DNA of 64,000 nucleotides from Cyclobacteriaceae bacterium (GTDB taxonomy: Bacteria; Bacteroidota; Bacteroidia; Cytophagales; Cyclobacteriaceae), in the NCBI GenBank assembly GCA_965267245.1, contig OZ253939.1:5840962-5904961 (forward strand), in the 5' to 3' direction. Under the pieces are notes generated by a model. That model made no database searches and had not been told where the DNA came from. It saw only the letters and a list, made by a program, of their open reading frames with translations. The first letter of the stretch is position 1. The number at the start of each line of letters is the position of its first letter. A program made the translations under genes and the position numbers. This document shows positions 28,031-53,613 of the stretch, in pieces.

Positions 28031-29293
28031 TTAATATGCTCCCCTATTCCACGCACCGGTTAAGGATCTTATCTCACCTGATGCGTTTAGTAATAGTCTT
28101 GAATCGTAATCTTTTAAATTTAATCCAGTTGCCAGGGCAACCGAGCTTGCTCCCAGTGTTAAATCATCATTTGCATAGTCTGTAAAATCAAGGCTACTTA
28201 ACCCAGAAGCTCCCTCAACGAATGTATTATTTTGACTATCCGGAGTTAAACCAGCGTCACTATCAATCTGGCTGCTAAATGTGGTAGTAGCATGCAATAT
28301 GTTGTTGTAGTATTTAACTTTTAGTCTTTCACTTGCTTCAGCTGAAATACCAACATTTGCTATGTCAGTAAATGTATTGTTGAACAATTCAATATTGCAA
28401 TTTGCCCTATTGATTGCATCTATTATGAAAACGCCGTTTATTGGATTAATTACTGTGTTGTTAAAACATCTGATGTCATCACCTGACAAAACAATACCAC
28501 CTCCCTGATCCGTGGCTCCTGAATCTTTGATGAAGTTATTCCAGATATACCCTTTTGATCCTACTCCAATTTGTAATCCACTACTTTGGCCACCACCATT
28601 ATCTCTACCATAGTTTTCAATATTATTGTTGTATACCAAAACTCTATCTTGAAATCCGTTAACCTGGATCCCTTCTCGGTCCGTATCGAAAACAACATTA
28701 TTTGCACATACCGCCTGTCTTAGCCAGTTCCATGCGTACCAAACTACACCGGATTCATAATAAACATGACCGTTGGAAGCTCCCTGATAAATAGCCTCAG
28801 TTCCACATCCGTGAACTCGACAACCCATTACTACACTATATGGATCATATCCAAAAGCGGTATTCCCTCTGGCTTGAGATAAATTATATGTTTGAAAACC
28901 TGTTCGTATCCCTGTATCTCCTACATCTCGCACCTCTACATTGAACACTCGAATGCCATAACAATTAACTGTGGTGTTTATGCCTTGAGTTAGTCCATTG
29001 TGAAGATCTGCGGCTAAACTGCGTGGATTTGAAAGATCGCCGATTATGTCAATGTAGCTGCAATTAGATAAAGACAGAATTGGACTAGCAGCGGCTCCAC
29101 CATTACTCTCCACATTGTTTAAATCAATGATGATAGGGTTAGCAGCTGTTCCATGATATCCTAAAATGCCTTTTACACTATGAATACCCGATTCATAGCG
29201 AATGATGTCTCCAGGTTGAACGTTTCCCAGGTCATTGATTCCAAGTTCTCCGTCGTGATATGTATCTGATGTAAGTGTTGTGAAAACAGCCAT
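28031..29293 (-). CDS. Right-handed parallel beta-helix protein (pectate-lyase-like; candidate polysaccharide depolymerase/spike)
   Basis: Periodic NN.I.N / FNNT repeats (VYNNNIENYG, IWNNFIKDSG, CFNNTVINP, LFNNTFTDI, YYNNILHAT) are typical of beta-helix repeats. Confidence 0.75.
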   Translation of the reverse strand: MAVFTTLTSDTYHDGELGINDLGNVQPGDIIRYESGIHSVKGILGYHGTAANPIIIDLNNVESNGGAAASPILSLSNCSYIDIIGDLSNPRSLAADLHNGLTQGINTTVNCYGIRVFNVEVRDVGDTGIRTGFQTYNLSQARGNTAFGYDPYSVVMGCRVHGCGTEAIYQGASNGHVYYESGVVWYAWNWLRQAVCANNVVFDTDREGIQVNGFQDRVLVYNNNIENYGRDNGGGQSSGLQIGVGSKGYIWNNFIKDSGATDQGGGIVLSGDDIRCFNNTVINPINGVFIIDAINRANCNIELFNNTFTDIANVGISAEASERLKVKYYNNILHATTTFSSQIDSDAGLTPDSQNNTFVEGASGLSSLDFTDYANDDLTLGASSVALATGLNLKDYDSRLLLNASGEIRSLTGAWNRGAY

Positions 29294-29309
29294 ATAATGT
29301 TGTGAATTT

Positions 29310-31331
29310 TTAAGTTGGGACTATTTCTATTTTCAACCAGCTTAATGCATAGTATGCAGGAGTGCCTACGGCAGCCTCACTAAAATCTAATTGTATTAAT
29401 CCGCTTCCGTCAACAGCCACATCTGCCAACAAAATGTTTTGATCCGGATCGCTCAAATCTGCGCCACCCATATCGTTCCAGGAACATGACCATTGATCCG
29501 TTTGCACACCATCCGTTACTTCTCCTCTACATTGATCTTCATTGGTGGCAGATCGATACCCACCACCTTTTATGTTGAATATCTTACTTGCCCAATCCGT
29601 GTAACCAGACACATCTATAATGATAGTTTCAGGATTTACAGAATAAAAACAGTCTCTAGTTGCTGCTGCTGGAATTGTAGTTACTCCATCGGTAATACTA
29701 CCGTTATATCCCTGACTTGTACTGTCATATGTTCCGTCCCATGCGGTATCTATCTCCATGTCAATTCCAGTTCCACTGCCATCACTGAATGCAGCTAAGT
29801 CACTGATTACTGTCCCGGGACTGTTATCAAGGTTGTCTATATTATTCCAGTTTCCGGATGCATGAGAATACTGTGATCCGAAATCGATAAATATTTCTTC
29901 TTCAGGATCGTTTTGAGTTGATAAACCATCTCCTGAAGCAATGTTACTTGTATAGTTACCTGCAGCGTGAACGAAATGCGCATATTTAGTTTGTCCAGGA
30001 GAGAGAAGACCTGTGAAATTAAATGTAATAGTTCCTGAAGCTGAAATTTCGGTACTATCAGCTAATGAGCCTACTGAAGTACCTGTTTCATCTTCCCCAT
30101 TCATGATTTCAGTTTCGTCAGGAGCAGTAATTGAATCCGTCAATACAACATATACCGTCCCAATGTCCTGGTTGATATCAACACTTGCAATTGCTGAATC
30201 ACCGCCTGATGCGGTATCAATAGGATTACTTAATGTAGCGGCAGTACTGTAATTGACAATGATATCAAAATACACATCCTCATAACCTGAGTGTGTACTA
30301 AATCCAACAGCTCTAATTACAAAAGTATCTCGTCCCTCAGTAGATGGAGAGCCATTTGCTGTCAAAACTCCGGTAGATGAATTAAGGCTCAACCAACTTG
30401 GAAGCCCCCAGCTTGAGAATTCTACATTTGAACCGGGACTATTGGTAAAACTTGGAGTCAATGTGGTAGCGGCCGTACTCACTTCGAATACCTGGTCGCT
30501 GTTACTATAGGTAAATCCTTCAATTGGTATAGCATTGAGTTCCAATACCACTCCATCACCATCCAGATCCGTAAAGGCAGCATCTGAAGCGCTCGTTCTT
30601 AATCCATTTAGAAATCCGGTAATACTTATCCTGGCATCTTCATTTACAGTATGTGCAGCACTAAAATCTATTAACAGTTGATCTACTTCGGAATCAGACA
30701 ATCCTGTATTGTGAAATGTGTAGAAGAAATCACCGGAGATGGTTTGGTAATCTTGGTCAGTAACACTACAATTACCTCCATCCAGGTAAAACAAGTCAAA
30801 GCTGTGATTGGAAAATAAGACACCCAGATCACCTGTAAGAGCAGTGTTTCCTACTTGTTCACCAAGATTTAACTCTACAAGGCTGCTTATATTGATAGAT
30901 GAAATAGCCCCTGAAATAATACCACCAAGGTTAAAGAAGCTTTGGAGGCTTTGAAAGTTGTTGATATTAGATGTGCTAATAGTAAGATCCGGAGAGAAGT
31001 CATCCTCTTTAGTAACTGATATGATGATACCGGTCAACCCTGAATGGTTCCCAATGGCAATAGCCGCATCTTCATTATCAAAAGTCTGACTGACTTTAGT
31101 AGGAGTTGCTGATAATGCTACCTGTTCAGTATCTAAACTTTTCCATTGAACAGTTTTGGTCCCTGAGCCAGTAAGCCACATTTCGATTGTTCCCGAGAAG
31201 CCGGAAGCTGTGGCCAGGTTCTGTAAAACAACTTCTGCTGAAATTTCCTCTGTTATGTACTTTGATACATTTGCCAGGTCTACACCATCCAGCTTTGCAA
31301 TGTTATCGGTATTTACGGTAGTTACTTTCAT
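29310..31331 (-). CDS. Fibre/receptor-binding-like protein with an Ig-like (He_PIG-type) domain
   Basis: 673 aa, Ser/Thr/Gly/Asp-rich. GLPSWLSLNSSTGVLTANGSPSTEGRDTFVIRAVG matches the putative Ig-domain pattern. ATGA-coupled to the upstream gene. Confidence 0.55.
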   Translation of the reverse strand: MKVTTVNTDNIAKLDGVDLANVSKYITEEISAEVVLQNLATASGFSGTIEMWLTGSGTKTVQWKSLDTEQVALSATPTKVSQTFDNEDAAIAIGNHSGLTGIIISVTKEDDFSPDLTISTSNINNFQSLQSFFNLGGIISGAISSINISSLVELNLGEQVGNTALTGDLGVLFSNHSFDLFYLDGGNCSVTDQDYQTISGDFFYTFHNTGLSDSEVDQLLIDFSAAHTVNEDARISITGFLNGLRTSASDAAFTDLDGDGVVLELNAIPIEGFTYSNSDQVFEVSTAATTLTPSFTNSPGSNVEFSSWGLPSWLSLNSSTGVLTANGSPSTEGRDTFVIRAVGFSTHSGYEDVYFDIIVNYSTAATLSNPIDTASGGDSAIASVDINQDIGTVYVVLTDSITAPDETEIMNGEDETGTSVGSLADSTEISASGTITFNFTGLLSPGQTKYAHFVHAAGNYTSNIASGDGLSTQNDPEEEIFIDFGSQYSHASGNWNNIDNLDNSPGTVISDLAAFSDGSGTGIDMEIDTAWDGTYDSTSQGYNGSITDGVTTIPAAATRDCFYSVNPETIIIDVSGYTDWASKIFNIKGGGYRSATNEDQCRGEVTDGVQTDQWSCSWNDMGGADLSDPDQNILLADVAVDGSGLIQLDFSEAAVGTPAYYALSWLKIEIVPT

Positions 31332-33532
31332 GCTGCTTCAACTTCTACCTCTGGTTTTGGCCATGTGTAAGTACCCGATCCGTAACGTCCAGTATTGCTG
31401 GCCACAAAGTTTTCGACATTCACAATTGAGTCAACAATGTGTGTCCAGGTTTGCTCACCTCTGAAGTCTCCGGCTTTGGTACTCTCCATTACCAGTATGA
31501 ATCCAATATTTGGGTATTGGTGCATAAAGGATTCCATTTCACTGGCTCTTATTCTGAAGTTGTTTATCAGATCGATGAAAACAAATTTGAATTTACCAGT
31601 ATCCAGGGCTTTTCTCAGTTCATTTAAGCTTCGGAAAGCGTCAAAGAACATACCAGGGTTACCATCCACCTTCATGTCTTTAATTAGCTTTTTGGTGGCC
31701 TGACCTATTCCCTGGTCCGCCAACACATAAAGCACATCACCAAACCCACTTATATAGTCGGCAAACTGAAAGCTGAATGAGGTTTTACCGTTTTTTGGTT
31801 TTCCATAAATGATCAATTTTAAATTGGTACCAGGATCTTGCATGAACTCACCCCATACACCATTAAAGGGCAATGTTTCAAAGTTTGTGTTCATGATATC
31901 GTCAGCGGTTTTGAACCCCATTGATGAATTTGTTTCTGCTTGAGAATCAGTTTCGTCTTGAGTGATTGAGTCGAGAAAGCCCCACCTTTCATTACTTTCT
32001 TCCTCTATGCCATTAAGTGTAGAGGTTTTTTTTGTAGGGGCTTTTTTAGGCCGTTTTACCGTTGGTCTGTCCTTCTTCTTTTTAGAATTTGCAAGCGATC
32101 TTTTGAGATATTTAGGTACTCCTTTGCTATCTGGTTGCAGAATAAAGTCTGCTGCTTCCTGAGCTTTACTGCTCGCTCTAAAAAAGAATTTATTATCCTT
32201 TTTCATGATGGCAAGTAGATTACTTTTCCAATGTTCCAGATATGCAGCACTGTTATTGATTGTATGATAGAGTATTCCGCTCTCACCACAAAGGAAAGTT
32301 GCCCCAAGCTCCGCTATCAATTCTTCAAAGGCATAATTTTTAGTTTTCATTCCTCCTGGCTTAAGACGGTCTAACCGTTTTTTATGTCCAGTACTGTGTA
32401 TGTACTCATGAAAAAGTGTACAGTAGTATTTTGGCAAACTTTCAAAAGATTCAGGCACAGGCATATTGACCTCATCCAATCCAGGTATATAGAATGCTTC
32501 AGGTTTTTTATGAGAAAATTTTGGTTTCGGAGTAGGGTAGGAGCGAATAATATTTTCAGCGGCCTCTATCTTTTCAGTCTGTTTCTTCTTCGGTTTCTTT
32601 TTAAGTTTAAAATCGATACCCTCAATATCCTCACCATTAAAAACCTTGTAGTAGCGCAATACCGGAAACTCGTCAAGGTTTTCGCACACATTAATTCCGT
32701 TTTCTGTTACCGGACCTTTAGCACATTGTGCAAAATACTTGAAGTACTGTTTGTCAGTTATTCTTTTTCCATCGAGTTTATAAATCATCTGAAAGTATGT
32801 GACGAAATAGCCTTTGGCACCTTCCTTCACTTTTCCTCCTTTTTGCTTCACCTGGTTGAATGTAAGAAAGTAGGGATTGTCCCACTCTTTTTGTCGCTGA
32901 AAAGGAATTAGAAAGTTTAACAGAAATGAGTTTATACCTCTATAAGGTTTTTTGCTTGCGAAATTTGTGGCTGGTAACCCATAGGATTCCATAGATTTCC
33001 ATGGTTTTCGCCAAACAAGATCTTTACTGTTCTCAATCATGTCTGTTACCATATCTGTAATGATTTGGTAAACATCATCATTAGCGACAGCCCCTAAAGT
33101 GTTCATGGCTGTTTCTTCACAATAGCATTCTATCCCATCAAGTGTTGTTACTCGATTTTTATAAGCAGTTTTACCATCTCGTGATATCTTAAATCCGGAA
33201 GATATAAATGTCTTCTTCTGACTAGTGTTGAGTTTTCTGGAGAATTGAATAGAGGCTTTGTTTGGTGTTATGCTTAGTTTTTTGAACGGGTCTGCAATTG
33301 CTTTATTTATGCATTTTTTAGTTTTAACGCTCAGCTTGATCTTAGCCTGTCCAATCTTATTTTTCCTCATGGCAGAAATAGTCTTATTCAGTTGATCCAA
33401 AACAACCTGATGACAATAACTTTTGACTGGATCTAAAGCGACAAGATTAGACTTTATGCTCTCAATACTGCCAATTTGAACGGTTTTACCATCCAGATTC
33501 CTAATTGTTCTATAGAGTCTATTTTCATCCAT
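31328..33532 (-). CDS. ArdC-like fusion protein: ssDNA-binding N-domain, zincin metalloprotease domain and C-terminal RecA/KaiC-like P-loop ATPase
   Basis: WRKPW...KKPYRGINSFLL...YFLTFNQVKQKGGKVKEG (DUF1738/ArdC-N), HEYIHSTGH...FEELIAELGATFLC (ArdC metalloprotease), a basic linker, Walker A GKPKNGKTS and Walker B FVFIDL. Confidence 0.78.
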   Translation of the reverse strand: MDENRLYRTIRNLDGKTVQIGSIESIKSNLVALDPVKSYCHQVVLDQLNKTISAMRKNKIGQAKIKLSVKTKKCINKAIADPFKKLSITPNKASIQFSRKLNTSQKKTFISSGFKISRDGKTAYKNRVTTLDGIECYCEETAMNTLGAVANDDVYQIITDMVTDMIENSKDLVWRKPWKSMESYGLPATNFASKKPYRGINSFLLNFLIPFQRQKEWDNPYFLTFNQVKQKGGKVKEGAKGYFVTYFQMIYKLDGKRITDKQYFKYFAQCAKGPVTENGINVCENLDEFPVLRYYKVFNGEDIEGIDFKLKKKPKKKQTEKIEAAENIIRSYPTPKPKFSHKKPEAFYIPGLDEVNMPVPESFESLPKYYCTLFHEYIHSTGHKKRLDRLKPGGMKTKNYAFEELIAELGATFLCGESGILYHTINNSAAYLEHWKSNLLAIMKKDNKFFFRASSKAQEAADFILQPDSKGVPKYLKRSLANSKKKKDRPTVKRPKKAPTKKTSTLNGIEEESNERWGFLDSITQDETDSQAETNSSMGFKTADDIMNTNFETLPFNGVWGEFMQDPGTNLKLIIYGKPKNGKTSFSFQFADYISGFGDVLYVLADQGIGQATKKLIKDMKVDGNPGMFFDAFRSLNELRKALDTGKFKFVFIDLINNFRIRASEMESFMHQYPNIGFILVMESTKAGDFRGEQTWTHIVDSIVNVENFVASNTGRYGSGTYTWPKPEVEVEAA

Positions 33533-33561
33533 TTGGGAATTGAGGTTTTATAAGGTTAATT

Positions 33562-33611
33562 AAAAGAGAAAAAGCCCCCGTTTCGGTCAAAAGGGAAAGG
33601 ATGGGGGCTTT
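33562..33611 (-). terminator. Intrinsic terminator ending the lysis/structural transcription unit
   Basis: On the minus strand AAAGCCCCC...GGGGGCTTT is followed by TTCTCTTTT. Confidence 0.55.
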
Positions 33612-33631
33612 GGTAAACGGCACCAACACGC

Positions 33632-33793
33632 CTACTTTTTTTTCCTGCTACTACTTTTCTTCTTTTTGCTTGTAGAACTCTTTCGCTTGCCGCCACCAAG
33701 TGTTGGCAGTTTAGCATTTTTGAGAATAGTCTTACCACCTACATATCCTATAAGTGCGCCTACTCCAAATTTTATTAAACTCTTGTCATCCAT
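33632..33793 (-). CDS. Small membrane-associated basic protein (53 aa)
   Basis: Hand translation gives MDDKSLIKFGVGALIGYVGGKTILKNAKLPTLGGGKRKSSTSKKKKSSSRKKK. I prefer it to the overlapping track ORF 33556-33738 because it abuts the upstream stop and ends before the terminator. Confidence 0.45.
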   Translation of the reverse strand: MDDKSLIKFGVGALIGYVGGKTILKNAKLPTLGGGKRKSSTSKKKKSSSRKKK

Positions 33794-33794
33794 T

Positions 33795-34157
33795 TTAGTC
33801 TGTATTTTGATTGTTGAACTTACTTGTTAAGTCTTTGATTTCGCCTTTCATTTCAGAGATGCCAGTTGTTATTGCGGCCTCAAGACGCTCAATAGTTTCT
33901 TTCAAAAATTGTTGATTGAGTATGTCTTTCTCAGTGTTCAATTTTATTTGTGCCGAATTATTGTCAATCATTTGCCTGTGATCTTTTAGTTCCTGGTTGT
34001 GTTCCTTCAGTGTTTCTTTTAAGCCGTTAATACTCATTGTTAGAAATATTCCTATAACTGAAACTAAACCTGATATTATCAAAAGAATTATCTGGAATAG
34101 TTGCGGATCAATTAATGTGGGCTTCTTTGCAACTTGGAGCAATAATGTTTCAATCAT
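33795..34157 (-). CDS. Single-TM protein with coiled coil (holin/spanin-like position)
   Basis: LFQIILLIISGLVSVIGIFLTM is a TM helix, followed by a coiled coil. Confidence 0.5.
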   Translation of the reverse strand: MIETLLLQVAKKPTLIDPQLFQIILLIISGLVSVIGIFLTMSINGLKETLKEHNQELKDHRQMIDNNSAQIKLNTEKDILNQQFLKETIERLEAAITTGISEMKGEIKDLTSKFNNQNTD

Positions 34158-34166
34158 TGTGCGTAA

Positions 34167-34634
34167 TTATGTTTTTAGTGATTCATTCTTACTCGTTCCA
34201 TAATAATAGCTGAATAGACTAGTCACAACCACTCCTTCAACCATTCCAATCAAATGGATGAATATCTCTCTTTCTGCTACCTCAGGAATCCAAATAATAG
34301 CATAGACAATCACTCCATAACTAGCCAGGCCGACCAAACCAGTTAGAACCATCATCCAATCTATCTTTCGGATTTTACTTACTTCTACCTCTCTCCACCT
34401 GGCATTTTTCTTATCGTCTACTTCCAAAGCCATCACTTCCAATTCATATTCATGGACAAGCTTTAAAGATTCAGCTTTTTGTTCCGGAGTAAGATCCGGA
34501 TCATCTGAAATTAACTTGGTTAAGATCTTTACGGGAGGGAAAAAGTCATCCACTACGTCTACTATAGCAGGTGCTGCACCTACTAAAAATTTACCAATTT
34601 TGGTGTCCTTAAATTTTTTTTTGTCCTTTTTCAT
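34167..34634 (-). CDS. Membrane protein (holin-like position directly downstream of the muramidase gene)
   Basis: Two C-terminal hydrophobic helices (MMVLTGLVGLASYGVIVYAIIWI, LIGMVEGVVVTSLFSYYY). ATGA overlap with the GH108 gene. Confidence 0.5.
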   Translation of the reverse strand: MKKDKKKFKDTKIGKFLVGAAPAIVDVVDDFFPPVKILTKLISDDPDLTPEQKAESLKLVHEYELEVMALEVDDKKNARWREVEVSKIRKIDWMMVLTGLVGLASYGVIVYAIIWIPEVAEREIFIHLIGMVEGVVVTSLFSYYYGTSKNESLKT

Positions 34635-35287
34635 GCTGCATTTAAATAATCCAAGACCTGTTTTCTTGCCTTTTTGTTAAATGAAATATATAAACCAGCT
34701 GCCCCCACAAGTGAAAGGCCAACGAGAGCATAATTTGTACCTTTCAAGTCTGGGAATTGATTTGTTCTCCTCAACCAACCAGGTAGGTACTTACTGTGTA
34801 CAATTCCCCTTCTCACACGGTCCAGATGATAGTTAATGCGAGCTTGTTTGTATCGCATATATAGCTTTACTGGATTTACTTTATTAATTGCTGCGATAGT
34901 TTGTGACCCAATGTGATTATCTACCGAAACTCGTTGACCTAATGTATTTACAACCTCCTGAATTGTGGCAACTGCTTTTGCTGCCAGTATGAAGAAATCA
35001 AAGTAAATGTTAGCAACATTCTGGTTGTTGATTTCACCGGCACGGCTTTTTATCCATCTCTGCCTGTAGAACTCTTTCACGAAGGGTTCCATGCCAGGAA
35101 TTTGCTGGTTGTTACTCAATGGGCCCTTTACATATTTATAATTATCAACATGAGGCCATCCGCTCCAATTCGGATGAATGGCTCTTGCGACTCCTGCATA
35201 GGTTTCCCCACCAAGATCATCAGGGTCATTGGCATAGTAGCCCTCGTGCTTTCTTACAATTCGATATGCTGGATCAAAATTGCTCAC
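34631..35287 (-). CDS. GH108-family muramidase with a C-terminal TM anchor
   Basis: KHEGYYANDPDDLGGETYAGV is the GH108 signature. The C-terminal YALVGLSLVGAAGLYISF is a TM helix. Confidence 0.85.
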   Translation of the reverse strand: MSNFDPAYRIVRKHEGYYANDPDDLGGETYAGVARAIHPNWSGWPHVDNYKYVKGPLSNNQQIPGMEPFVKEFYRQRWIKSRAGEINNQNVANIYFDFFILAAKAVATIQEVVNTLGQRVSVDNHIGSQTIAAINKVNPVKLYMRYKQARINYHLDRVRRGIVHSKYLPGWLRRTNQFPDLKGTNYALVGLSLVGAAGLYISFNKKARKQVLDYLNAA

Positions 35288-35302
35288 CTGTTGGATTTTC
35301 TT

Positions 35303-36001
35303 TTAGATCATTCGACCGAAAGCGCCGTTTGGAATTATTCCTCTTTGTCGAGCAGGTATTTTACTCGCTATTCGCTTTAACCCTGAAGAAGTTCCTACAA
35401 TCCTCTTAAATTCGTCGTAAGTGACAATCGTTTTGGGTATCCCTGCGGCTTTTAGTGCTTTCTCAGTTCCAGGACCAAAAATCCCATCAGCACCACCAGA
35501 AGATCTTATAAAAGCACCGGCAGTACCACCTCTTTTAAGCAAGGCATTTTGCAAATCCTTTACAAACTGGCCTCTGGTTCCTTTTTTGAGAGGAAATCCA
35601 GCTGGGGTCATTTTATTTGCAGTTGTAAAAGTTGTAGATGGAAGACTTGATGTTACCTTACCTGTTAGACTTTTGAATGTTGCTTCGTCGATTGACAAAG
35701 GCCACCTAGCCAAGCTAACAGCCTTATTTGTACCAGGCCCCCAAATACCATCCGCACCTCCAGTATCACGAATGTATTTAGCAATAGTGCCTCCCTTTGA
35801 CAGAAGTACGTTTTGAAGCATTTTAACATTTTCGCCTCTACTACCTTGACTCAATGGAAAAGAGTCTCCTTTAGTGGAGATATCCTCGATTTCAATAGGG
35901 TCAATTGTGGATTTACCCTTTTGCTTGCTTACAACTTTATAAATCAGTACTCCCGTTCCTAGAGCGGCCGCACCTACAATTATTTTACCCTTGGTTTTCA
36001 T
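35303..36001 (-). CDS. Membrane-anchored protein with two PG_binding_1 peptidoglycan-binding domains
   Basis: N-terminal TM, then two copies of G.RG..VK.LQN.LL..GG......GGADGI.GPGT.KA. Confidence 0.8.
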   Translation of the reverse strand: MKTKGKIIVGAAALGTGVLIYKVVSKQKGKSTIDPIEIEDISTKGDSFPLSQGSRGENVKMLQNVLLSKGGTIAKYIRDTGGADGIWGPGTNKAVSLARWPLSIDEATFKSLTGKVTSSLPSTTFTTANKMTPAGFPLKKGTRGQFVKDLQNALLKRGGTAGAFIRSSGGADGIFGPGTEKALKAAGIPKTIVTYDEFKRIVGTSSGLKRIASKIPARQRGIIPNGAFGRMI

Positions 36002-36423
36002 TTTATCAAGTCAAGTTTCTCAAGTTTATTTACTACCACTACTCCTAGTCCCAAAACCGCCAAACCTCCTGCTACAGGTAGTATCCAGTTAAGGTTTCTA
36101 CTAATGTTTGCAACGCTTCCGGTAACATTAATGGCAGTATCTGCCACATTGGTGAATATTGCTGAAAGAAAGCTCCTGATATCAATACCGTTTTTTAAAA
36201 AGTATTCAACAAAATCAGTATTGTACCTACACCAATTAAGTGCATGATCCCATGGACCTTGTTTTTCCCATGCTGTCAGCCAAATTTCCTTTGCTTTACT
36301 TAATCCGTATTTTTCCTTTAGCCTCATATGCCAAATGGTCCATTCAGCACAACCCCAATAGTCATCCCAACCCCATTCGTCATAGTTAGGTGTGCTTTCT
36401 GCTGTGATCATGCTTGTTTCCAT
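35998..36423 (-). CDS. Trp-rich protein with a C-terminal TM anchor
   Basis: 141-aa ORF with WGWDDYWGCAEWTIWHM. The C-terminal ILPVAGGLAVLGLGVVVV is a TM helix. Confidence 0.5.
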   Translation of the reverse strand: METSMITAESTPNYDEWGWDDYWGCAEWTIWHMRLKEKYGLSKAKEIWLTAWEKQGPWDHALNWCRYNTDFVEYFLKNGIDIRSFLSAIFTNVADTAINVTGSVANISRNLNWILPVAGGLAVLGLGVVVVNKLEKLDLIK

Positions 36424-36426
36424 CGC

Positions 36427-36624
36427 TTATATGAATTTTTTAGCCATTTGTAATTTTTTGTCAATACCAGGCTTTTTACTTGCCTGTGCCAACCATTGCA
36501 AATCTTTTAGTTGCAATGTGCTTAGTTGCTCCAAAGCATGTACTTTTTGCTTTGCTTCATTGTCACTATTAGCGGTCACCTTAATTGTGCTGCTAACTTG
36601 TTTTTCGAAGTTGAGTGGTGCCAT
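36427..36624 (-). CDS. Hypothetical small protein
   Basis: 65-aa ORF that overlaps the upstream gene end by 32 nt. Confidence 0.35.
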   Translation of the reverse strand: MAPLNFEKQVSSTIKVTANSDNEAKQKVHALEQLSTLQLKDLQWLAQASKKPGIDKKLQMAKKFI

Positions 36625-37417
36625 CTTCTTTCTTTAGTTTTAGTTTATCAATTAGTTCTATTAAAAATTCAGGATTCGAATTGAATCGCTGAATAATCCA
36701 GTATACAGCCTCACCAAAGTTTTGCTGAATATCATCAGCTTGGCTGGATACCCATGCAGCAATTTTTGATGCTGTTTCAGTATATGCTCCACCTTCTATT
36801 GATTGTGGTTGTGGTTGGAGTAGATTGGCCAAAGAAGGTCCTATTACTTCAATCGCTTTCTCCGCTACTCCTGGATTGTTCTCAAAGAAACCATTGAGGC
36901 CTTTAGGGGTGTCTACTTCATCATTGAGTTTATCGATGATGGTGTCTTTCTTGATAATTTCCCTTTCAAGCTTTTCTTTTTCTTCTCTAAGATGCTCTAC
37001 TTTATCCTCCATTTTTTGGAGTCGAGATTTAGTCTCCTTAAGTGCTTCAGTTCGTTCCTCCAAAATCCAGCTTAAAGGATTATTGGGGTCTGTTCTTGAT
37101 GTTGGTGCTTTGTACTCTCTTGGTTCTGGTTCGATGTTTCCCAATGTTGCATTTGGAATTGCTTCAATTTCTGAAGCTGGGTTTAAGTGGAAGGAAAATT
37201 CCTGCAAATGTCTGAAAGGTTGTGAACCGTACTTCCAGTATACTCTAATTCGGACAAAGCCACTTTTGTCGCTTAGAACACTTTCAAGATCATCAAGATC
37301 CTCGTACTGCTCCTTATTAGATATTTTTCTAGCATCTACCCATACATCAAGGAAAATATCCCTTTCCTTTTCACTTTGTTGCTGATCGATAAATTGAATG
37401 GCGTCTTGTAGTGTCAT
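36593..37417 (-). CDS. Coiled-coil protein (scaffold-like?); its N-domain is paralogous to 13805-14278
   Basis: 274 aa with a central heptad-rich KETKSRLQKMEDKVEHLREEKEKLEREIIKKD. Confidence 0.55.
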   Translation of the reverse strand: MTLQDAIQFIDQQQSEKERDIFLDVWVDARKISNKEQYEDLDDLESVLSDKSGFVRIRVYWKYGSQPFRHLQEFSFHLNPASEIEAIPNATLGNIEPEPREYKAPTSRTDPNNPLSWILEERTEALKETKSRLQKMEDKVEHLREEKEKLEREIIKKDTIIDKLNDEVDTPKGLNGFFENNPGVAEKAIEVIGPSLANLLQPQPQSIEGGAYTETASKIAAWVSSQADDIQQNFGEAVYWIIQRFNSNPEFLIELIDKLKLKKEDGTTQLRKTS

Positions 37418-37429
37418 AATTTGGTGCGT

Positions 37430-37876
37430 TTAGTCTAGTACTACATATGATGGTGATGGATTGAAATAAATTACATCGGCAGTTAAAGCATATCCAACAA
37501 TCCTTACAACAGCATCAGTTGTTCCAGTAGGAGCGGTATCTGTTATTTCCCCTGCTGTTTCTGACACATATATGATAGATCCAGGAGTCCAGTCCCATGA
37601 TTCGTCTTTTATTAGGTTTCCTGGCAATGCGACCCTCATTTTATTTCCATCACTTCCATTTTCCAAAGCCACTGCCAGCAAGGAAGTGCTTGAGGCCTCA
37701 ACACTCGCATCGGCCACTAACCATTCTCCATCAGTTCCCAGATACAATAATTGCATGGAACTTATCGATGCTCCACCGTTAAGAGAGGATGTTAAAGGTC
37801 CTCCTTTTGCAGAATGATCTCTTCTTGGTAAGGAGAGATTTCGAGGGATACTATTTCCTTTCCTGACTAGAGTCAT
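37430..37876 (-). CDS. Putative virion protein (beta-rich, decoration/fibre-like pattern)
   Basis: 148-aa ORF. The GYALTADVIYFNPSPSYVVLD ending and the alternating pattern suggest a beta-sandwich. There is no firm family assignment. Confidence 0.45.
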   Translation of the reverse strand: MTLVRKGNSIPRNLSLPRRDHSAKGGPLTSSLNGGASISSMQLLYLGTDGEWLVADASVEASSTSLLAVALENGSDGNKMRVALPGNLIKDESWDWTPGSIIYVSETAGEITDTAPTGTTDAVVRIVGYALTADVIYFNPSPSYVVLD

Positions 37877-38212
37877 TTATTCTTCTTCTTCCACCAGTTT
37901 ATTAATAATCACTCTCGCAGAGCCGGATTGAACATTTTGTGAGCTATCAGCAAAATGAATGAACCATTCAGTGTTTAATGGAGCATTTATATCACCAGTC
38001 CATTGAATCCCTTCTTCTGTAGCTTCGATTGGCAAAGAGTATGTCTTGTCTTTATCCATTTCAACGTACAGTATACTGGTGCTCTCATTTTCAATAGTTA
38101 CACCAACAACATTTCTTAACTCAAGTTTTGTGAGTTCATTTGCTGCCCCGGTATTCAGAAGCATACTCACTAATACTTTCGTTGATTTATTCATTTTAAG
38201 AGTCTTTTTCAA
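37877..38212 (-). CDS. Hypothetical structural-module protein
   Basis: 111-aa ORF directly abutting its neighbours. Confidence 0.45.
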   Translation of the reverse strand: MKKTLKMNKSTKVLVSMLLNTGAANELTKLELRNVVGVTIENESTSILYVEMDKDKTYSLPIEATEEGIQWTGDINAPLNTEWFIHFADSSQNVQSGSARVIINKLVEEEE

Positions 38213-38963
38213 TTCTTGCGTGAAATAGTAATTGGTAATCTGACCCAGAAACAGCGCTAGTAGTTTTTTTCATGATTGTAAGTCCCTGGCCTTTAATTAT
38301 CTTAAAATCAACATTCAAGAACTTCTTGTTGGGTTCAACAGCATTGTTTTCAAGTAATTCGTGACCTGCAAGATCTAATATCCTTCCATTGGTATCCTTT
38401 AGTCCTATATATCTGGCTCCACTTAGGCCTCCAGAATCAAACTCATAAACCCATAGTCCTGTACATCTATCATACTCAGAGTCAAGTTCGAAAGGAAACT
38501 CATAAGTGTTTGCAGCAGATCCATCTGGGATGGTGCATAACTTTTTCTGATACTTAACTCTTGATTTTTTTTCAATTGGGATATCATCTTTTATCAAGAG
38601 AGCATCAAAAACTACCTTAAACTCTGAGGATGTTACACCAGGTGTTTCGGTTCTCAGTTTTAAATTTTGACCTGATTTTATTGGAAAATTAACATCAAGA
38701 AATTTTTCATTTGGGCCGCTGTATGATGATGTAAACAGATTATAATTAACAAAATCTAAAATAACACCATCGTTATCCTTGAGTCCATAGGATCTTAGAT
38801 TCGATAACCCTCCTGATGAAATAACTTGAGCTCTTAAACCAATACACCTGTCATAGTTGGTGTCAAGTTCAAAATCGTCTTCATGTATCCCTGCGGGCTG
38901 TCCACTTGCAACAACAAGAACTCCTGATTTGACCTTTATATTTCTATCTAGTAAACTGTTCAT
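38196..38963 (-). CDS. Protein built from two tandem homologous domains of about 97 aa (capsid candidate)
   Basis: Residues 31-126 and 158-254 align: FELDTNYDRCIGL...SGGLS...GLKDNDGVILD...PNEKFLDVNFPIKSGQNL versus FELDSEYDRCTGL...SGGLS...GLKDTNGRILD...PNKKFLNVDFKIIKGQGL. Confidence 0.6.
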   Translation of the reverse strand: MNSLLDRNIKVKSGVLVVASGQPAGIHEDDFELDTNYDRCIGLRAQVISSGGLSNLRSYGLKDNDGVILDFVNYNLFTSSYSGPNEKFLDVNFPIKSGQNLKLRTETPGVTSSEFKVVFDALLIKDDIPIEKKSRVKYQKKLCTIPDGSAANTYEFPFELDSEYDRCTGLWVYEFDSGGLSGARYIGLKDTNGRILDLAGHELLENNAVEPNKKFLNVDFKIIKGQGLTIMKKTTSAVSGSDYQLLFHARIEKDS

Positions 38964-39063
38964 TTTTGATAGGTATTAAAACATTGGAGGAAACATAACA
39001 GGGGAAATCCTTTGAAAAAGGAACTCCCCTTTTTTCTGTGTTAGGGTAAAAAGGGGAATGAGC

Positions 39064-39681
39064 TTAGTCCAGTCTGGTTTTCCACCCAATTAAGGCCACC
39101 TCAAGGTGAACAGCAGTATTTGCGCTTATTACAGTTTCCCCTGCGGCAAATTTGATTTCCCAGGTAAATGGAACATCTGCTCGAAGCAACCTTAACTGCT
39201 TCAACTGATAAGTGTCATCCTTTCCTGCGGCATTGTTCGAATCAGCCTGTGAGGTAGCTTCAAATATCTCCAATTCAAGCAATGGTCTGTCATTTTGAGA
39301 AATGATCAGTTTACCATTAGCCAAAGCAGCAGGGAAATTGGATCTTTTGCTGCTGTAGTTTGCTGTATGAGCAGGGTCTGTGGTGGAATCACTTCCAACT
39401 ACTCCAATTTTCACCCCAGAAATCACCATATGCTCATACTTAGGTAATTTTGAGTTGTTGAAGTTTCTAATTCCCTGCTCCTCTGTGTCGCCACCTAGAA
39501 ACAATTCCTGGATACCTGCCAGACCAATGATATTCTTACGCACATAAAGCGTATGGTCGTCAAGTCTCAAGGCATCTTTCTCAAGAGCAACTTTTGTGTC
39601 CTCATCTAGCCTAGCGAAGATTTTGTCTTTGGCAAGAAAGTCAAATACTCTGTTCTCGCCGTACATGATTTGTGAATTCAT
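39064..39681 (-). CDS. Putative major structural protein (205 aa)
   Basis: Beta-rich ORF preceded by the start-associated motif and followed by hairpins in the 100-nt gap. This is the position and size expected for an abundant virion protein. The call is an inference. Confidence 0.5.
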   Translation of the reverse strand: MNSQIMYGENRVFDFLAKDKIFARLDEDTKVALEKDALRLDDHTLYVRKNIIGLAGIQELFLGGDTEEQGIRNFNNSKLPKYEHMVISGVKIGVVGSDSTTDPAHTANYSSKRSNFPAALANGKLIISQNDRPLLELEIFEATSQADSNNAAGKDDTYQLKQLRLLRADVPFTWEIKFAAGETVISANTAVHLEVALIGWKTRLD

Positions 39682-39748
39682 TTTGTTCTAAATTTTTCGT
39701 TTTGAGAAATAATTTTTTGGTGTTTTTTATTGATGTGTGGTTTGGCTT

Positions 39749-40234
39749 TTAGGTCAAACTATTAGAAAGAATTGCGCTTTCTTCAAAGTCTCCTCCCTCG
39801 CCAGCCAGTTGCTGTGAAAGAAGGGGGTTGCCCATTCCAGCGAGACTATTTTCAAATGAGTCTCCAGAAGGCAGCATTTCGAAATCGTCAAATTCGCCCA
39901 TCATAGCGGCCTCTTCCATATCAGCCATTGATAAGCCATTTACGGTGACTACTGCGTCATTACCAGGTAGCAAGGACTCTATTTCGGCCAATACTCCTGT
40001 GAACCTTTTTTCAGGTTTAAATACCAGTTTTTTTACTGCGCTCAGTGCGCCAAAACCGGCCATTACTGCACCGGCAGGTTTTGCCCAGTCCGGTCCAAAG
40101 TACCACGCAGCACCGCCTGCTACCAAGGAAACCCCTGGACCAATTAAGCCTGGAATCTTGTTTTCTGCGGCTTGTGCTGCCAAGAGGCCTGCTCCGCTGG
40201 AGCCAACCTCAATAAGTGCATTTTCAATTTTCAT
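39749..40234 (-). CDS. Gly/Ala-rich membrane protein with an acidic tail
   Basis: GSSGAGLLAAQAA...GVSLVAGGAAWYFG...GAVMAGFGALSAV is followed by a D/E-rich C-terminus. Confidence 0.5.
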   Translation of the reverse strand: MKIENALIEVGSSGAGLLAAQAAENKIPGLIGPGVSLVAGGAAWYFGPDWAKPAGAVMAGFGALSAVKKLVFKPEKRFTGVLAEIESLLPGNDAVVTVNGLSMADMEEAAMMGEFDDFEMLPSGDSFENSLAGMGNPLLSQQLAGEGGDFEESAILSNSLT

Positions 40235-40248
40235 AAAACATTCAATTT

Positions 40249-43200
40249 TTAAATTACGATAGTCGTATTCTTCGATTTTTTTGATTTAGTTTTTTTCCTT
40301 TTTGGGCCATTCATAGGAGCCGGTGACGGGTTAGGTCTAACTGGAGCTGGTTGGTGATAAACAGGCTGTGTACTTCCTTTCTTGCTGCTTACAGCATAGA
40401 TTAAACCACCTACTGCAACAACACCTATTCCCGCCATTATCAATTCTTTTTGAGTAAGTCCACCAATTTCTAGTTGCTTAACAGATTGGCTACTGATTAC
40501 TTCCGGTTGTAAGACTTTAGCATCCTGGATATCTGAATTTGTGGCAGCTGGTATTGCTTTCTGTGGTGGAGTAGGAAGGGTATTGTTCATTACTTCCCTT
40601 GTTATGTTTTCCTTTACAACTGGAGGTGCAGGAACTGTTACTGATAATTTTGTAAGATGTGGTTTTCCTGCTTGGTCCGCGTACTTATTTGCATAATTTG
40701 CGTATGTGTTTGCTCGAATTGCATCATTCTTGGCCTTGTACATATCATACTTTTGCTTGTATGAATTATAGCGACTTAACGCAAGGCTAGATGCTGAAGA
40801 ACTGCTTGAGCTAGTTTTCTTTGTGACTGAACTAGTTATTTTATTAACTGCTTTATTCAGAAGCGGTTTATCCTTGGTTAGATCACTCAGTTTATTTCCT
40901 ACCGCTTTAACCAGGTTATTTTTTGTGTCTTCCTTGTCATTGCCAATGTTTTGAACAATCCCGTTAACTATTGGATTTTCACTTAAGCCTTTCAGAAGGT
41001 CTACAATTTTCACTATAAATGGAGCGGCCGCAGCGGTTGCTGCTGCTGCTGTTGCTGGTTCTCCCATACCTACTAGGTATTCAGCTTCCTCTATCCCTCT
41101 CAGTGCGGTTCTTGCACGTGAAGCAATTGGAATATTAATTGAAGACGTTTTACTTGTAGTTGGTCTAACATAGGAAGAAGTTTTCTTTGAAGGAGTTGGT
41201 TTTTTTGAACTCGTGGTTTGAGGTGGTCTTCCTCCAGTAACAATCGGTCTGCTGGTAGCTCCAATTACAGACTTTAAGTTTGCATCCAGCTTTGGTTGAC
41301 CGGCCCTATCAGCGTATTGATTTGCAAGTGAGGCATATCTATTAGCCGCTGTATAACTTTTGGCGTTTTTGTATGTAATATATCGTGACTTATAGTTGTT
41401 GTAGGATTTAAGTGCCGCCTCTCTGTCTCTACTGGAAACGGTAGAAGAGGAAGTTGTACTGGAGGTAGTTCGTGGACCTTTAGTCAATGATCTTGGATCT
41501 GTTACAGTAGTTATTAGAGGTAGCTTTGGTTGCCCTGCTTTTTCTGCATATCTATTTGCGTACTCTACATACCTGTTTGCAAGAGTCTTATTTCCTTTAA
41601 TTTCATATGTTTTGGCTGAGGCTTTGTATCTAGTGTAAAGTTTTAATGCATTTGGGTCTACCTTTTGAGCGGCCTTAGCTTTCATTTTAGCGATCTCTGC
41701 CGGATCTTTTGAGCCCGAATTACCAGGATTGAAAATTGTTCTGGTTGGAATTGGGCTAGTATTAGAAGAAGTTGTAGTTGACAATTTAGGTTGACCTGCT
41801 AAAGCTGCATACTTATTGGCAGCATTGACAGCTGCTATAAATTGACTTCTAAGTCTTCCATTACCTCTATACTTATCAGCTAAATCCTTGTACTTTTTGT
41901 ACTGAGCCAAATATTGTTGCTGCTTAGGATCATTTCTTTTAATCGAAGATGCAGATCCCCTGGAAGTGTTGTAAGAAACATTCCTGATTTGATCCGTTGA
42001 TTTTACTTTTGGAACATTTGACTTTGAAGAAGATGGTGGATTCATTACATACTTGAAATCAATGAACCAGCTTTTATCTCCGATTACCTTTTTCGCTCCG
42101 TCTGAAACTGCTTCCGCAAATTTCTTTGGATCTCCACCTATGGTTTTAAAAATCTTCTCGACCTTATCATAGCTGTCCTTTCTTTTTTTCCAATCATTCA
42201 GATCTATTTTTGCATTTTGTGCCTGTTGTTGTGAATATCGACCAGGCCAAATAGCAGCAGCTTTCTTTTTACCCAGGACTCGAAACCACACTTTAATTCC
42301 TTCCCTGGCTAGTAAAGTAGCGGGAAAGACTTTTTTAACCCCTTGAGCAACCTTACCAGCTACTTTCTTAACGCCATTAAATACTTTTTTGAAAATACCA
42401 TCTCCACCTAGACCTAAACTGCCAAATTCTTCGTCAACGATGAGAAGAGCTATAACATATTCCCTTTTATCAGGATCATCCCAGGATTCAATCAAGAGAT
42501 CAACTTTTGAAATGAAATCTTCAGGAGATTCACCATTAGGAACTTGCTCAACTCCATTAATGATGTTGGCTCGTAATTCTACCCAACCATTTTTTGTGTC
42601 TAAGGCATATTCAGTGATACCTTGCATTGTACCACAGTCACAGGTAATTCCATTCATGGCAGTAATATTTTTAGGGTTTACAATCACCTCATCATAGTAT
42701 TTTGGGAGATTGTTTTTGGGATATTCAAAGTCAAATTTGTCAAGTACGGGATCAATCACATAGTAATTGTCTCTGGTTGATAAGTTTGCTCCATCGCTTT
42801 TTGGAACAACTATGTAAACATGGCTATAATCTCCAGTGGCACTTTTACTAATCTTTCGTATAGAAAAAGGAATACCGAAGTTGTAGAGTATTGCGCCTGT
42901 CAGGAAAGCCATATCATCACAATCAATTCCGCTTTTTCTGAGAGCGTAGCTTGCAGAAACACCCTTTACCTGTTCTCGGTTTTTAGGATCCTGCTTATAT
43001 TGGAAATTGTTGTATATGTGATTGAAGATATTTCTAGCAAAAATCTCTCGATTTGCTGAATATAGTTTTTTTGCAATTTTGGCTGCTTCTTTGTGATCCT
43101 GCTGGATTTTCTCAACCATCAAGTTAAGCGTATCATAGCTCGTGCCAAGAGTTATTGTAGTTTCTTTGGGTTTTCTGGACGGGTAGTAACTATCAAATTG

Positions 43201-43290
43201 GTTTCCAGTGTTAATTTCTCTCGCACCAGAAGCAACTACACCGAGACCATTCATATAGGTTATTGGATATCGTGATAATACTCTGGTCAT
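40249..43290 (-). CDS. 1013-aa protein: N-terminal transglutaminase-like cysteine protease core, four Tyr/Lys-rich repeats of about 50 aa, and a C-terminal TM anchor
   Basis: GIDCDDMAFLTGAILYNFGIPFSIRKI...YSHVYIVV...YYVIDPV gives a Cys-His-Asp triad pattern. The repeats end in AGQPKL or AGKPHL. The TM helix is IMAGIGVVAVGGLIYAV, followed by a Pro-rich basic tail. Confidence 0.7.
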   Translation of the reverse strand: MTRVLSRYPITYMNGLGVVASGAREINTGNQFDSYYPSRKPKETTITLGTSYDTLNLMVEKIQQDHKEAAKIAKKLYSANREIFARNIFNHIYNNFQYKQDPKNREQVKGVSASYALRKSGIDCDDMAFLTGAILYNFGIPFSIRKISKSATGDYSHVYIVVPKSDGANLSTRDNYYVIDPVLDKFDFEYPKNNLPKYYDEVIVNPKNITAMNGITCDCGTMQGITEYALDTKNGWVELRANIINGVEQVPNGESPEDFISKVDLLIESWDDPDKREYVIALLIVDEEFGSLGLGGDGIFKKVFNGVKKVAGKVAQGVKKVFPATLLAREGIKVWFRVLGKKKAAAIWPGRYSQQQAQNAKIDLNDWKKRKDSYDKVEKIFKTIGGDPKKFAEAVSDGAKKVIGDKSWFIDFKYVMNPPSSSKSNVPKVKSTDQIRNVSYNTSRGSASSIKRNDPKQQQYLAQYKKYKDLADKYRGNGRLRSQFIAAVNAANKYAALAGQPKLSTTTSSNTSPIPTRTIFNPGNSGSKDPAEIAKMKAKAAQKVDPNALKLYTRYKASAKTYEIKGNKTLANRYVEYANRYAEKAGQPKLPLITTVTDPRSLTKGPRTTSSTTSSSTVSSRDREAALKSYNNYKSRYITYKNAKSYTAANRYASLANQYADRAGQPKLDANLKSVIGATSRPIVTGGRPPQTTSSKKPTPSKKTSSYVRPTTSKTSSINIPIASRARTALRGIEEAEYLVGMGEPATAAAATAAAAPFIVKIVDLLKGLSENPIVNGIVQNIGNDKEDTKNNLVKAVGNKLSDLTKDKPLLNKAVNKITSSVTKKTSSSSSSASSLALSRYNSYKQKYDMYKAKNDAIRANTYANYANKYADQAGKPHLTKLSVTVPAPPVVKENITREVMNNTLPTPPQKAIPAATNSDIQDAKVLQPEVISSQSVKQLEIGGLTQKELIMAGIGVVAVGGLIYAVSSKKGSTQPVYHQPAPVRPNPSPAPMNGPKRKKTKSKKSKNTTIVI

Positions 43291-43763
43291 TTTTGTTTAA
43301 TCAGATTAATATCAGTCTCACTCATAACCTGCTGACCTTTACTTGTAATCCATGCTTTCACCCTAATCAAAGGGTTCGCGCTCACCAGTGAAAGGAATGA
43401 AGTTGCTATGTTCATCAAACCTACCGAGAGTGGAATATCAAATTTTGTGGTTTGCCTTGCTGGAAATGTTACTCCCAGGGTTGGTTGACTATTTCCAATT
43501 TCCGATTCTACTTCTTGATTATTTTCAACTGTTACCCTGTAGATTTTGACAACCAGATTATCAATAGGTAAAGTGATATCAGTATTATTTACGTACTCTG
43601 CAACCAGAGTAAAATTTGCATTGGGAAGGTGGATTTTTAGGTTCTTTACACTGACTATCCGGAAGGTATTAATTTCCGCTAATTGCAATGCCTGACGTAT
43701 TTTGTTGCCGAAAAGAGTGTAGGCAATGGCGCCTAACCCACCAAGAATCAAAAGATTTTTCAT
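43287..43763 (-). CDS. N-terminally anchored beta-sandwich protein (LEA_2/NDR1-like pattern)
   Basis: MKNLLILGGLGAIAYTLF is a TM helix, followed by a strand-rich domain of about 130 aa. Confidence 0.45.
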   Translation of the reverse strand: MKNLLILGGLGAIAYTLFGNKIRQALQLAEINTFRIVSVKNLKIHLPNANFTLVAEYVNNTDITLPIDNLVVKIYRVTVENNQEVESEIGNSQPTLGVTFPARQTTKFDIPLSVGLMNIATSFLSLVSANPLIRVKAWITSKGQQVMSETDINLIKQK

Positions 43764-45773: not shown

Positions 45774-45783
45774 TGGTGTGTGG

Positions 45784-46335: not shown

Positions 46336-46336
46336 T

Positions 46337-47023: not shown

Positions 47024-47047
47024 TCTTTAGTTTTTTGTGGTGTGTGG

Positions 47048-53271: not shown

Positions 53272-53287
53272 TTTAAAAAAAAAAGAA

Positions 53288-53593: not shown

Positions 53594-53613
53594 ATTTATG
53601 TTTTTTGTTGTAA

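Follow-up and report, generated by a model that had tools for sequence, protein, structure and literature searches.

The 64,000-nucleotide stretch of contig OZ253939.1 analysed here (the window; assembly GCA_965267245.1, a Cyclobacteriaceae bacterium) carries an integrated element, Element 1 (about 12,009-51,496), that is very probably an intact temperate virus of the Bacteroidota with a tail-less icosahedral jelly-roll capsid of the PRD1-adenovirus lineage (Bamfordvirae) and an internal membrane, closest to the Salisaeta phage SSIP-1. A sequence-only reading of positions 28,031-43,763 had proposed a tail-less, membrane-rich virion in a region where no tailed-phage hallmark gene could be recognised. 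That proposal is supported by a double jelly-roll (DJR) fold, a jelly-roll-like neighbour, a gene module conserved in relatives and homologues of SSIP-1 virion proteins, and because the DJR fold and the SSIP-1 homologues were found, the evidence for a tail-less virion moves from absence to positive. The open reading frames (ORFs) of this virion block lie where the earlier reading had placed them, all on the minus strand, and form one long operon running from 43763 to 28031 (aa, amino acids):

43287-43763, minus strand: 158-aa protein with an N-terminal hydrophobic segment (Kyte-Doolittle), first gene of the block; orthologues 50% identical.
40249-43290, minus strand: 1013-aa protein with an N-terminal transglutaminase-like cysteine-protease domain, four repeats, a C-terminal transmembrane helix and a basic tail.
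39749-40234, minus strand: 161-aa Gly/Ala-rich, moderately hydrophobic protein, conserved in position among orthologues.
39064-39681, minus strand: 205-aa single jelly-roll-like protein, candidate penton or second capsomer protein (model, neighbourhood).
38196-38963, minus strand: 255-aa DJR-fold protein with two homologous halves of ~125 aa, candidate major capsid protein (BLASTP, AlphaFold2, Foldseek).
37430-37876, minus strand: 148-aa protein with weak cement/decoration-type similarity (Pfam Phage_cement_2, E 1.8e-4; phrog_4368, E 2.6e-9).
36593-37417, minus strand: 274-aa coiled-coil protein, putative scaffold or size-determining protein (matches to coiled-coil families only; kept in the related loci L008 and L010).
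35998-36423, minus strand: 141-aa protein with a C-terminal transmembrane helix; orthologues in L008 and L010 58-70% identical.
35303-36001, minus strand: 232-aa protein with an N-terminal transmembrane helix and peptidoglycan-binding domains (PG_binding_1; Pfam/PHROGs, hydropathy).
34631-35287, minus strand: muramidase (GH108 and PG_binding_3) with a C-terminal hydrophobic anchor, candidate virion-membrane lytic enzyme.
33632-34634, minus strand: three small proteins of 53, 120 and 155 aa (sequence, hydropathy; orthologues in L010).
31328-33532, minus strand: 734-aa polyvalent protein with ArdC_N, zincin (MPTase-PolyVal) and C-terminal RadA/RecA-like ATPase domains, the last at residues about 545-706.
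29310-31331, minus strand: 673-aa Ig-domain protein, candidate fibre or receptor-binding protein (Pfam He_PIG; synteny).
28031-29293, minus strand: 420-aa beta-helix protein, candidate spike or depolymerase (visible sequence repeats; Pfam Beta_helix in the L010 orthologue).

The 255-aa protein is an internal tandem duplication, with halves that are 39% identical over 119 residues (BLASTP, E 4e-29). An AlphaFold2 model, built on a 13-sequence alignment of two-domain members of the family, is all-beta with eight strands per half (8+8; predicted local distance difference test (pLDDT), 85.3; predicted template modelling score (pTM), 0.83). When this model was compared with the PDB using Foldseek, DJR major capsid proteins ranked first with a probability of 1.0, with matches to the capsid protein of Singapore grouper iridovirus (SGIV; E 2.5e-6), P3 of PR772 and PRD1 (template modelling (TM) score up to 0.55), P2 of PM2 (E 6e-5) and, among the top matches, Vp54 of PBCV-1. 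In the BFVD the best match was a 256-aa viral protein, I1ZBI0 (TM score 0.62 both ways, E 1.2e-9), followed by the capsid proteins of Wip1, GC1 and STIV and then by those of giant viruses. A profile of the family returned only noise from PDB sequences. The predicted DJR fold of the 255-aa protein is solid, and from its context we infer that it is a capsid protein.

The adjacent 205-aa protein is modelled as N-terminal helices followed by a beta-sandwich (pLDDT 79, pTM 0.79). The Foldseek matches of this model are weak (E 8e-4 to 1e-2) and many are jelly-roll capsid, cement or penton proteins, including the KHP40 cement protein, proteins of SPV1 (TM score 0.48/0.54), HCIV-1 and SH1, VP17 of P23-77 and the FLiP penton (8a06). 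A search for jelly-roll capsid folds, which the sequence-only reading had suggested, has yielded one DJR model and one single jelly-roll-like model.

SSIP-1 is described in the literature as an experimentally characterised tail-less phage of Salisaeta with an internal membrane, a T=49 icosahedral capsid and a circular 43.8-kb genome, and as an unclassified isolate, a halophile virus that is lytic. Sequence matches link four Element 1 proteins to four of the 57 SSIP-1 proteins: the N-terminal domain of the 1013-aa protein to gp34 (a virion protein with a Transglut_core domain; E 7e-14), the ATPase domain of the 734-aa protein to gp40 (also a virion protein; E 4e-9), the protein encoded at 17,500-17,940 to ORF6 (E 2e-26) and a second GH108 protein, at 15,055-15,570, to ORF31 (phmmer, E 2e-22). 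The SSIP-1 structural block, consisting of gp43 (2319 aa, with methyltransferase and ParB_N domains), gp44 (241 aa), gp45 (210 aa), gp46 (211 aa), gp47 (256 aa) and gp48 (132 aa), parallels in its order the Element 1 proteins of 1013, 161, 205, 255, 111 and 148 aa. Both genomes encode a polyvalent-type virion protein (gp43 in SSIP-1) and an integrase, their sizes are similar (43.8 kb and 39.5 kb), and so are their host lineages, Salisaeta being a Bacteroidetes-related bacterium. A weak in-register alignment of the two halves of gp47 (36043-36813; E 0.014) is a hint that SSIP-1, too, has an internal duplication.

In size, host lineage and gene order SSIP-1 is the closest known relative of Element 1, and the statement in the earlier reading that the element fits none of the described families overlooked this unclassified phage. 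The two viruses differ in several respects. The integrase of SSIP-1 (ORF13, 7231-8694) belongs to the tyrosine family (Pfam Phage_integrase, E 2e-12) and that of Element 1 to the serine family; the SSIP-1 ATPase stands alone as a protein of 320 aa, whereas that of Element 1 follows ArdC and a zincin peptidase in one fused chain; and SSIP-1 is described as a lytic virus of a halophile, whereas Element 1 is integrated in a host with a G+C content of about 38%. No described relatives of SSIP-1 were found in the literature searched, and to our knowledge it has been an orphan since 2012.

The virion genes form part of a module shared by 13 related loci, fetched from an ENA contig with Bacteroidota-type neighbours, Logan assemblies, an NCBI assembly and a JGI metagenome. 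Wherever the contig is long enough (L001-L011 and L013) the order is kept: a large protein with a transglutaminase-like N-terminal domain, a protein of ~150 aa, the 205-aa homologue, a single- or double-domain protein of the DJR family, and then small proteins and peptidoglycan hydrolases. A homologue of the 205-aa protein adjoins every DJR-family member examined, and the large proteins often carry polyvalent-protein domains, either PBECR1 or MuF_C (the latter in L001 and L013). The closest relatives, L008 and L010 (NCBI assembly GCA_041628655.1), are collinear with Element 1 over the covered stretches at 31-70% identity, and since their orthologues match in ORF length, the genes of Element 1 look intact. 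In L010 the orthologue of the 673-aa Ig-domain protein comes straight after that of the 148-aa protein; because the fibre and beta-helix genes directly follow it there, the 148-aa protein may anchor a vertex spike. Pattern scans of GTDB representative genomes, IMG/VR and JGI metagenomes recovered no relatives of the element, and neither the 255-aa nor the 205-aa protein had a tblastn match in 50,697 phage records.

Hallmarks of tailed phages (Caudoviricetes) were sought at the profile level in 48 Element 1 ORFs, including all of those of at least 200 aa, using Pfam, PHROGs or both, while fold prediction covered two ORFs. In line with the sequence-only reading, none of the 48 matched a family of terminases, portals, HK97 capsids, tail tubes, tail sheaths or tape measures. 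Matches in the structural category were marginal: the 120-aa transmembrane protein matched a minor-tail family (E 6.5e-3), and the 148-aa protein matched head-decoration/cement families (E 2e-4 to 2.5e-3). All seven ORFs of at least 400 aa could be assigned (integrase, TPR protein, beta-helix protein, Ig-domain protein, ArdC-zincin-ATPase protein, transglutaminase-like 1013-aa protein and DnaG-type primase). The same profiles recovered the integrase, the immunity switch (HTH_3), the methylases, the primase-helicase, both GH108 muramidases and the peptidoglycan-binding protein that had been named from sequence, and the beta-helix and fibre-like proteins are borne out by Beta_helix in the L010 orthologue and the He_PIG Ig domain, respectively. 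A Walker A scan gave matches in the primase-helicase, at the C-terminal end of 31328-33532 and, spuriously, in a 136-aa ORF, and nowhere else; the earlier claim that this RecA-like domain holds the sole P-loop outside the primase stands, apart from that match. Pfam matches to a relaxase, a coupling protein (VirD4) or a VirB4-type ATPase were likewise lacking in Element 1, as were further P-loop ORFs, and for these reasons a conjugative element was rejected as the source of a block combining small membrane proteins, a lytic enzyme and ArdC.

Hydrophobic segments were called by the Kyte-Doolittle scale with a 17-residue window and a threshold of at least 1.6. Strong segments occur in seven ORFs of the block (those starting at 43287, 40249, 35998, 35303, 34631, 34167 and 33795), and the segments of 39749 and 33632 are weaker, which makes the previous count of at least eight single-helix membrane proteins slightly generous and essentially right. 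Among the three small proteins, that of 120 aa has one strong transmembrane helix and a coiled coil, that of 155 aa has two transmembrane helices and that of 53 aa has a basic tail. Judged from hydropathy, the seven ORFs are consistent with a membrane-containing tail-less virion. The 1013-aa protein has four repeats of ~40 aa (window positions 40655-41820) that end in ANRYA..AN.YA..AGQPKL, a transmembrane helix at residues 951-967 and a Lys-rich tail.

The family to which the 255-aa protein belongs was largely invisible to word-indexed homology searches, which returned one protein (the query itself) and four proteins. Running phmmer exhaustively over 1.84 billion representatives gave 67 relatives including the query: 54 single-domain proteins (118-160 aa), 12 two-domain proteins (242-274 aa) and one protein of 1,487 aa that aligns with only ~30 residues of the query. 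With one protein added from a separate search there are 13 two-domain proteins, each containing two full copies of the single-domain profile. In a neighbour-joining tree of 80 domain units, which is crude and lacks support values, the N- and C-terminal halves of one fused group sit in separate clades, as a single old duplication would suggest, and the halves of the other fused proteins, including that of Element 1, fall among single-domain proteins, a pattern that suggests at least three fusion events. The L010 locus (10720-12224) has two tandem fused DJR-fold paralogues of 251 and 250 aa, while Element 1 has one, and loci with a single-domain member have a single copy adjoining a 186-aa homologue of the 205-aa protein. 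A tentative proposal, which may well prove wrong, is that in this one virus lineage a ~125-aa family has passed from single to double jelly roll by tandem duplication and fusion, recently and perhaps repeatedly, and that packaging proceeds there without FtsK/HerA, possibly with a virion-borne RadA-like ATPase.

Several observations weigh against a DJR-capsid virus related to SSIP-1. All of the structural assignments come from predicted folds. Interleaved with the capsid proteins in the Foldseek PDB matches of the 255-aa model are arabinofuranosidase 8ic8, PNGase F, PHM and SID1, which we take to be among the recognised cellular DJR proteins; as such enzymes (8ic8, PNGase F and PHM) score near the capsid proteins, the capsid role of the 255-aa protein depends on context. 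A majority of the capsid-domain family (54 of 67) is single-domain. The DJR protein is 31-33% identical to its L008 and L010 counterparts and the 205-aa protein 63-66%, and the faster divergence counts against this reading because it is unusual for a major capsid protein. The link to SSIP-1 is uneven in its structural block: profile comparison of the DJR family with gp47 gave no signal, the 205-aa family aligned with gp45 and gp46 in hhalign at an E of 0.0018 and a probability of 15%, which is suggestive at most, and I1ZBI0, equal to gp47 in length (256 aa), is no more than a candidate for that protein.

The packaging machinery belongs among these difficulties. An FtsK/HerA-type ATPase is a hallmark of most DJR viruses. 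The sequence-only reading had named such an (A32-like) enzyme as something to look for, and neither the P-loop scan nor the profiles found one in Element 1; the candidate that emerged is the ATPase domain of the 734-aa protein, which matches AAA_24 and, in profile comparisons, RadA (E 1.2e-11) and RecA, and no FtsK/HerA-type chain in the PDB. Because the domain is RadA-like, its identity as an A32-like packaging enzyme was rejected at the family level. SSIP-1 gp40, cited in the literature as the predicted packaging ATPase of that phage, matches AAA_25, KaiC and RadA. At 22-28% identity the Element 1 domain (31331-31945) has relatives in three other Bacteroidota phages (Bacteroides phage p00, Winogradskyella phage Peternella_1 and Elizabethkingia phage TCUEAP3) and in an uncultured phage genome of 636 kb. 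Those in the three named phages are annotated as ATPase, helicase or RadA-like protease, and a packaging role is therefore not secure.

Part of this evidence would also fit a virus of the same kind with a different capsomer, of the P23-77/SH1 type with two kinds of vertical single-barrel capsid protein, in which the 205-aa protein would be one capsid protein and the 255-aa protein a fused dimer of a small capsid protein, giving pseudo-hexamers of two 205-aa and two 255-aa subunits rather than of three DJR subunits. This arrangement is compatible with the preferred explanation at the level of the virus, and we regard it as rather unlikely. The literature places SSIP-1 among viruses with two species of single-beta-barrel capsid protein, and P23-77 VP16 is reported to act as a homodimer inside the capsomer. 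In L002-L004 a single 126-aa domain adjoins the 186-aa homologue, the 205-aa family is better conserved than its DJR partner, and the weak matches of the 205-aa model include capsid proteins of HCIV-1, SH1, SPV1 and P23-77. Yet those matches (best E 8e-4) also include a penton protein (FLiP 8a06), and the 255-aa model matches DJR capsid proteins that form trimers, with no single-barrel capsid protein in its top 50 PDB matches.

Two further explanations would remove the tail-less virus altogether. A tailed phage in which the genes for terminase, portal, capsid and tail had diverged too far for profile searches would fit three observations: a majority of the ORFs in the block lack a Pfam or PHROGs match, the protein at 37430-37876 has weak cement and head-decoration matches, and MuF_C domains occur in the large proteins of L001 and L013. 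A large terminase is usually simple to detect, however, and none was found; every Element 1 ORF of at least 400 aa is otherwise accounted for, DJR and single jelly-roll folds stand in place of tailed-phage folds, and homologues are shared with the tail-less SSIP-1, which makes a tailed phage highly improbable. It also appears improbable, if not quite to the same extent, that Element 1 is no autonomous virus at all; it would then be a decayed prophage, a satellite or some integrative mobile element, its DJR protein a carbohydrate-active or binding protein of cellular type and its membrane proteins having some other role. This reading would account for the closeness of cellular DJR enzymes to capsid proteins in Foldseek, for the lack of a relative among IMG/VR viral contigs, and for the presence of genes often found on conjugative elements, those for glycosyltransferases, methylases and an anti-restriction ArdC domain. 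It sits poorly with the lack of relaxase, VirB4/VirD4 or other conjugation genes and of any P-loop beyond the primase and the RadA-like domain, with module order and ORF lengths conserved across relatives, with two lysis-type muramidases, and with SSIP-1 homologues (gp34 and gp40) that are annotated as virion structural proteins.

If Element 1 is a temperate tail-less virus as preferred here, induction would lead the DJR protein to assemble into pseudo-hexameric capsomers on a vesicle that bears the small membrane proteins, with the 205-aa protein supplying pentons or a second capsomer subunit and the 274-aa coiled-coil protein acting as scaffold or ruler. The 148-aa protein, the 673-aa Ig-domain protein and the 420-aa beta-helix protein, which are adjacent in L010, would form the vertex spikes. 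The RadA-like ATPase domain may take part in packaging, the weakest and least certain step of this scheme. Two large proteins of the operon have the kinds of domain that are typical of polyvalent proteins. The membrane-anchored 1013-aa protease-like protein and the ArdC-zincin protein would be packaged and delivered with the DNA, blunting host restriction, the anchored GH108 enzyme would open the peptidoglycan at entry, and the soluble GH108 enzyme (15055-15570) would serve lysis.

Described prokaryotic DJR viruses have genomes mostly of 7-20 kb. The Corticoviridae and Tectiviridae (PM2, PRD1 and Bam35) resemble Element 1 in the size of the DJR protein (255 aa compared with 269 aa for PM2 P2), an adjacent single jelly-roll candidate, many small membrane proteins, a virion-type lytic enzyme and the lack of tail genes. 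Unlike them, Element 1 has a genome 2.5 to 4 times larger, no FtsK/HerA packaging ATPase, two jelly rolls that are clearly alike in sequence, and a DnaG-type primase-helicase in place of the protein-primed PolB of the Tectiviridae or the rolling-circle Rep of PM2. The Sphaerolipoviridae and their kin (P23-77, SH1 and HCIV-1) share adjacent small and larger capsid-type genes, the weak fold matches of the 205-aa protein and temperate members, whereas the 255-aa model is a side-by-side DJR and not the stacked two-barrel type of VP17, the ATPase is of another type and there is no sequence similarity; the literature groups SSIP-1 with Sphaerolipoviridae-type viruses. The Finnlakeviridae (FLiP and PhiCjT23) have in common with Element 1 Bacteroidota hosts, a DJR capsid protein that cannot be detected by sequence, no recognisable packaging ATPase and an internal membrane, which in Element 1 is a predicted one. 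The genomes of these Flavobacterium phages are ~9 kb of single-stranded DNA replicated with a rolling-circle Rep, in contrast to a 39.5-kb double-stranded DNA provirus with a primase-helicase.

The boundaries of Element 1 are set by an 11-nt T-arm core, GGGGTTCGATT, and because this core recurs at 12009-12019 and 51486-51496 the element measures 39,477 bp between repeats, in agreement with the 39.5 kb previously estimated. It is integrated at a tRNA-Glu gene, the 3' part of which comes from the element (sequence and alignment). Both copies of GGGGTTCGATT adjoin the 3' end of a serine recombinase gene, and therefore two related elements lie in tandem at one tRNA, with serine integrases that are 35% identical. 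Element 2 (51502-64000) is a tandem insertion at the same tRNA and extends past the window edge, beyond which its structural genes lie; its TPR protein is 37% identical to that of Element 1 and its replication module differs (DUF3987 and DnaB_N). Flanking host genes encode the Por_Secre_tail domain, a sorting domain used in type IX secretion, and this is taken to place the host in the Bacteroidota. From 11,995 to 51,365 all sizeable genes are on the minus strand, except for a short divergent pair at 23,898-24,590. The features at the boundaries and outside the virion block are:

11961-12035, plus strand: tRNA-Glu (UUC), integration target (ARAGORN, Rfam).
11995-13569, minus strand: large serine recombinase (integrase) of Element 1 (Pfam Resolvase, Recombinase and Zn_ribbon_recom).
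15055-15570, minus strand: GH108 muramidase with PG_binding_3, soluble candidate endolysin, SSIP-1 ORF31 homologue (Pfam/PHROGs).
17500-17940, minus strand: 146-aa protein, SSIP-1 ORF6 homologue (phmmer E 2e-26; tblastn 45% identity).
23898-24308, plus strand: HTH_3 repressor, the sole sizeable plus-strand gene, candidate lysogeny switch (Pfam HTH_3, E 1.3e-10).
44347-47716, minus strand: cluster of glycosyltransferase-like (TOD1/MUCI70, GT-D) and methyltransferase genes (Pfam/PHROGs; conserved in L010).
48102-51365, minus strand: 1087-aa DnaG-type primase with a C-terminal P-loop (helicase-like) domain, replication gene (Pfam/PHROGs, Walker A scan).
51486-51520, plus strand: partial, degenerate tRNA-Glu 3' copy, the right end of Element 1 and junction with Element 2 (repeat and alignment).
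51502-53127, minus strand: serine integrase of Element 2 (Pfam/PHROGs).

The glycosyltransferase and methyltransferase cluster is upstream of the virion operon, and in L010 (1-5105) it adjoins a sugar epimerase; its products may modify the virion or its DNA. Element 1 also has C5 and N6/N4 methylases (Pfam/PHROGs). Near the integrase, a 157-aa ORF (13805-14278) opens with 83 residues that match the N-terminus of the 274-aa coiled-coil protein (36593-37417) at 50% identity, and the domain that they share is duplicated within one element. With regard to the iterons that the sequence-only reading had placed with the primase-helicase, the short repeats found elsewhere in a repeat scan of Element 1, one not aimed specifically at iterons by the primase, sit at gene starts. 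The motif CATTTTGGATCG overlaps the start codons of several minus-strand genes (16317-16345, 19095-19128, 19292-19325 and 19543-19570) and looks like a common translation-start or promoter context, not iterons, while TGGTGTGTGGTT (22681-22700, 45774-45793 and 51398-51416) is just upstream, in the minus-strand sense, of the starts of three gene blocks including the primase gene and is a candidate promoter or operator element.

The occurrence of single and fused forms, one fused form having halves that are still 39% identical, bears on how DJR capsid proteins originate. If the proposed course of duplication and fusion is true, such proteins can arise anew in viruses, and not only once in the distant past or through the capture of a cellular DJR enzyme. 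Element 1 likewise bears on how a large genome is packaged without a canonical ATPase. Together with its relatives it would form a group of temperate SSIP-1-like viruses of ~40 kb in ordinary Bacteroidota, which, given that the pattern scan of IMG/VR returned no relative, standard virus-detection pipelines may miss.

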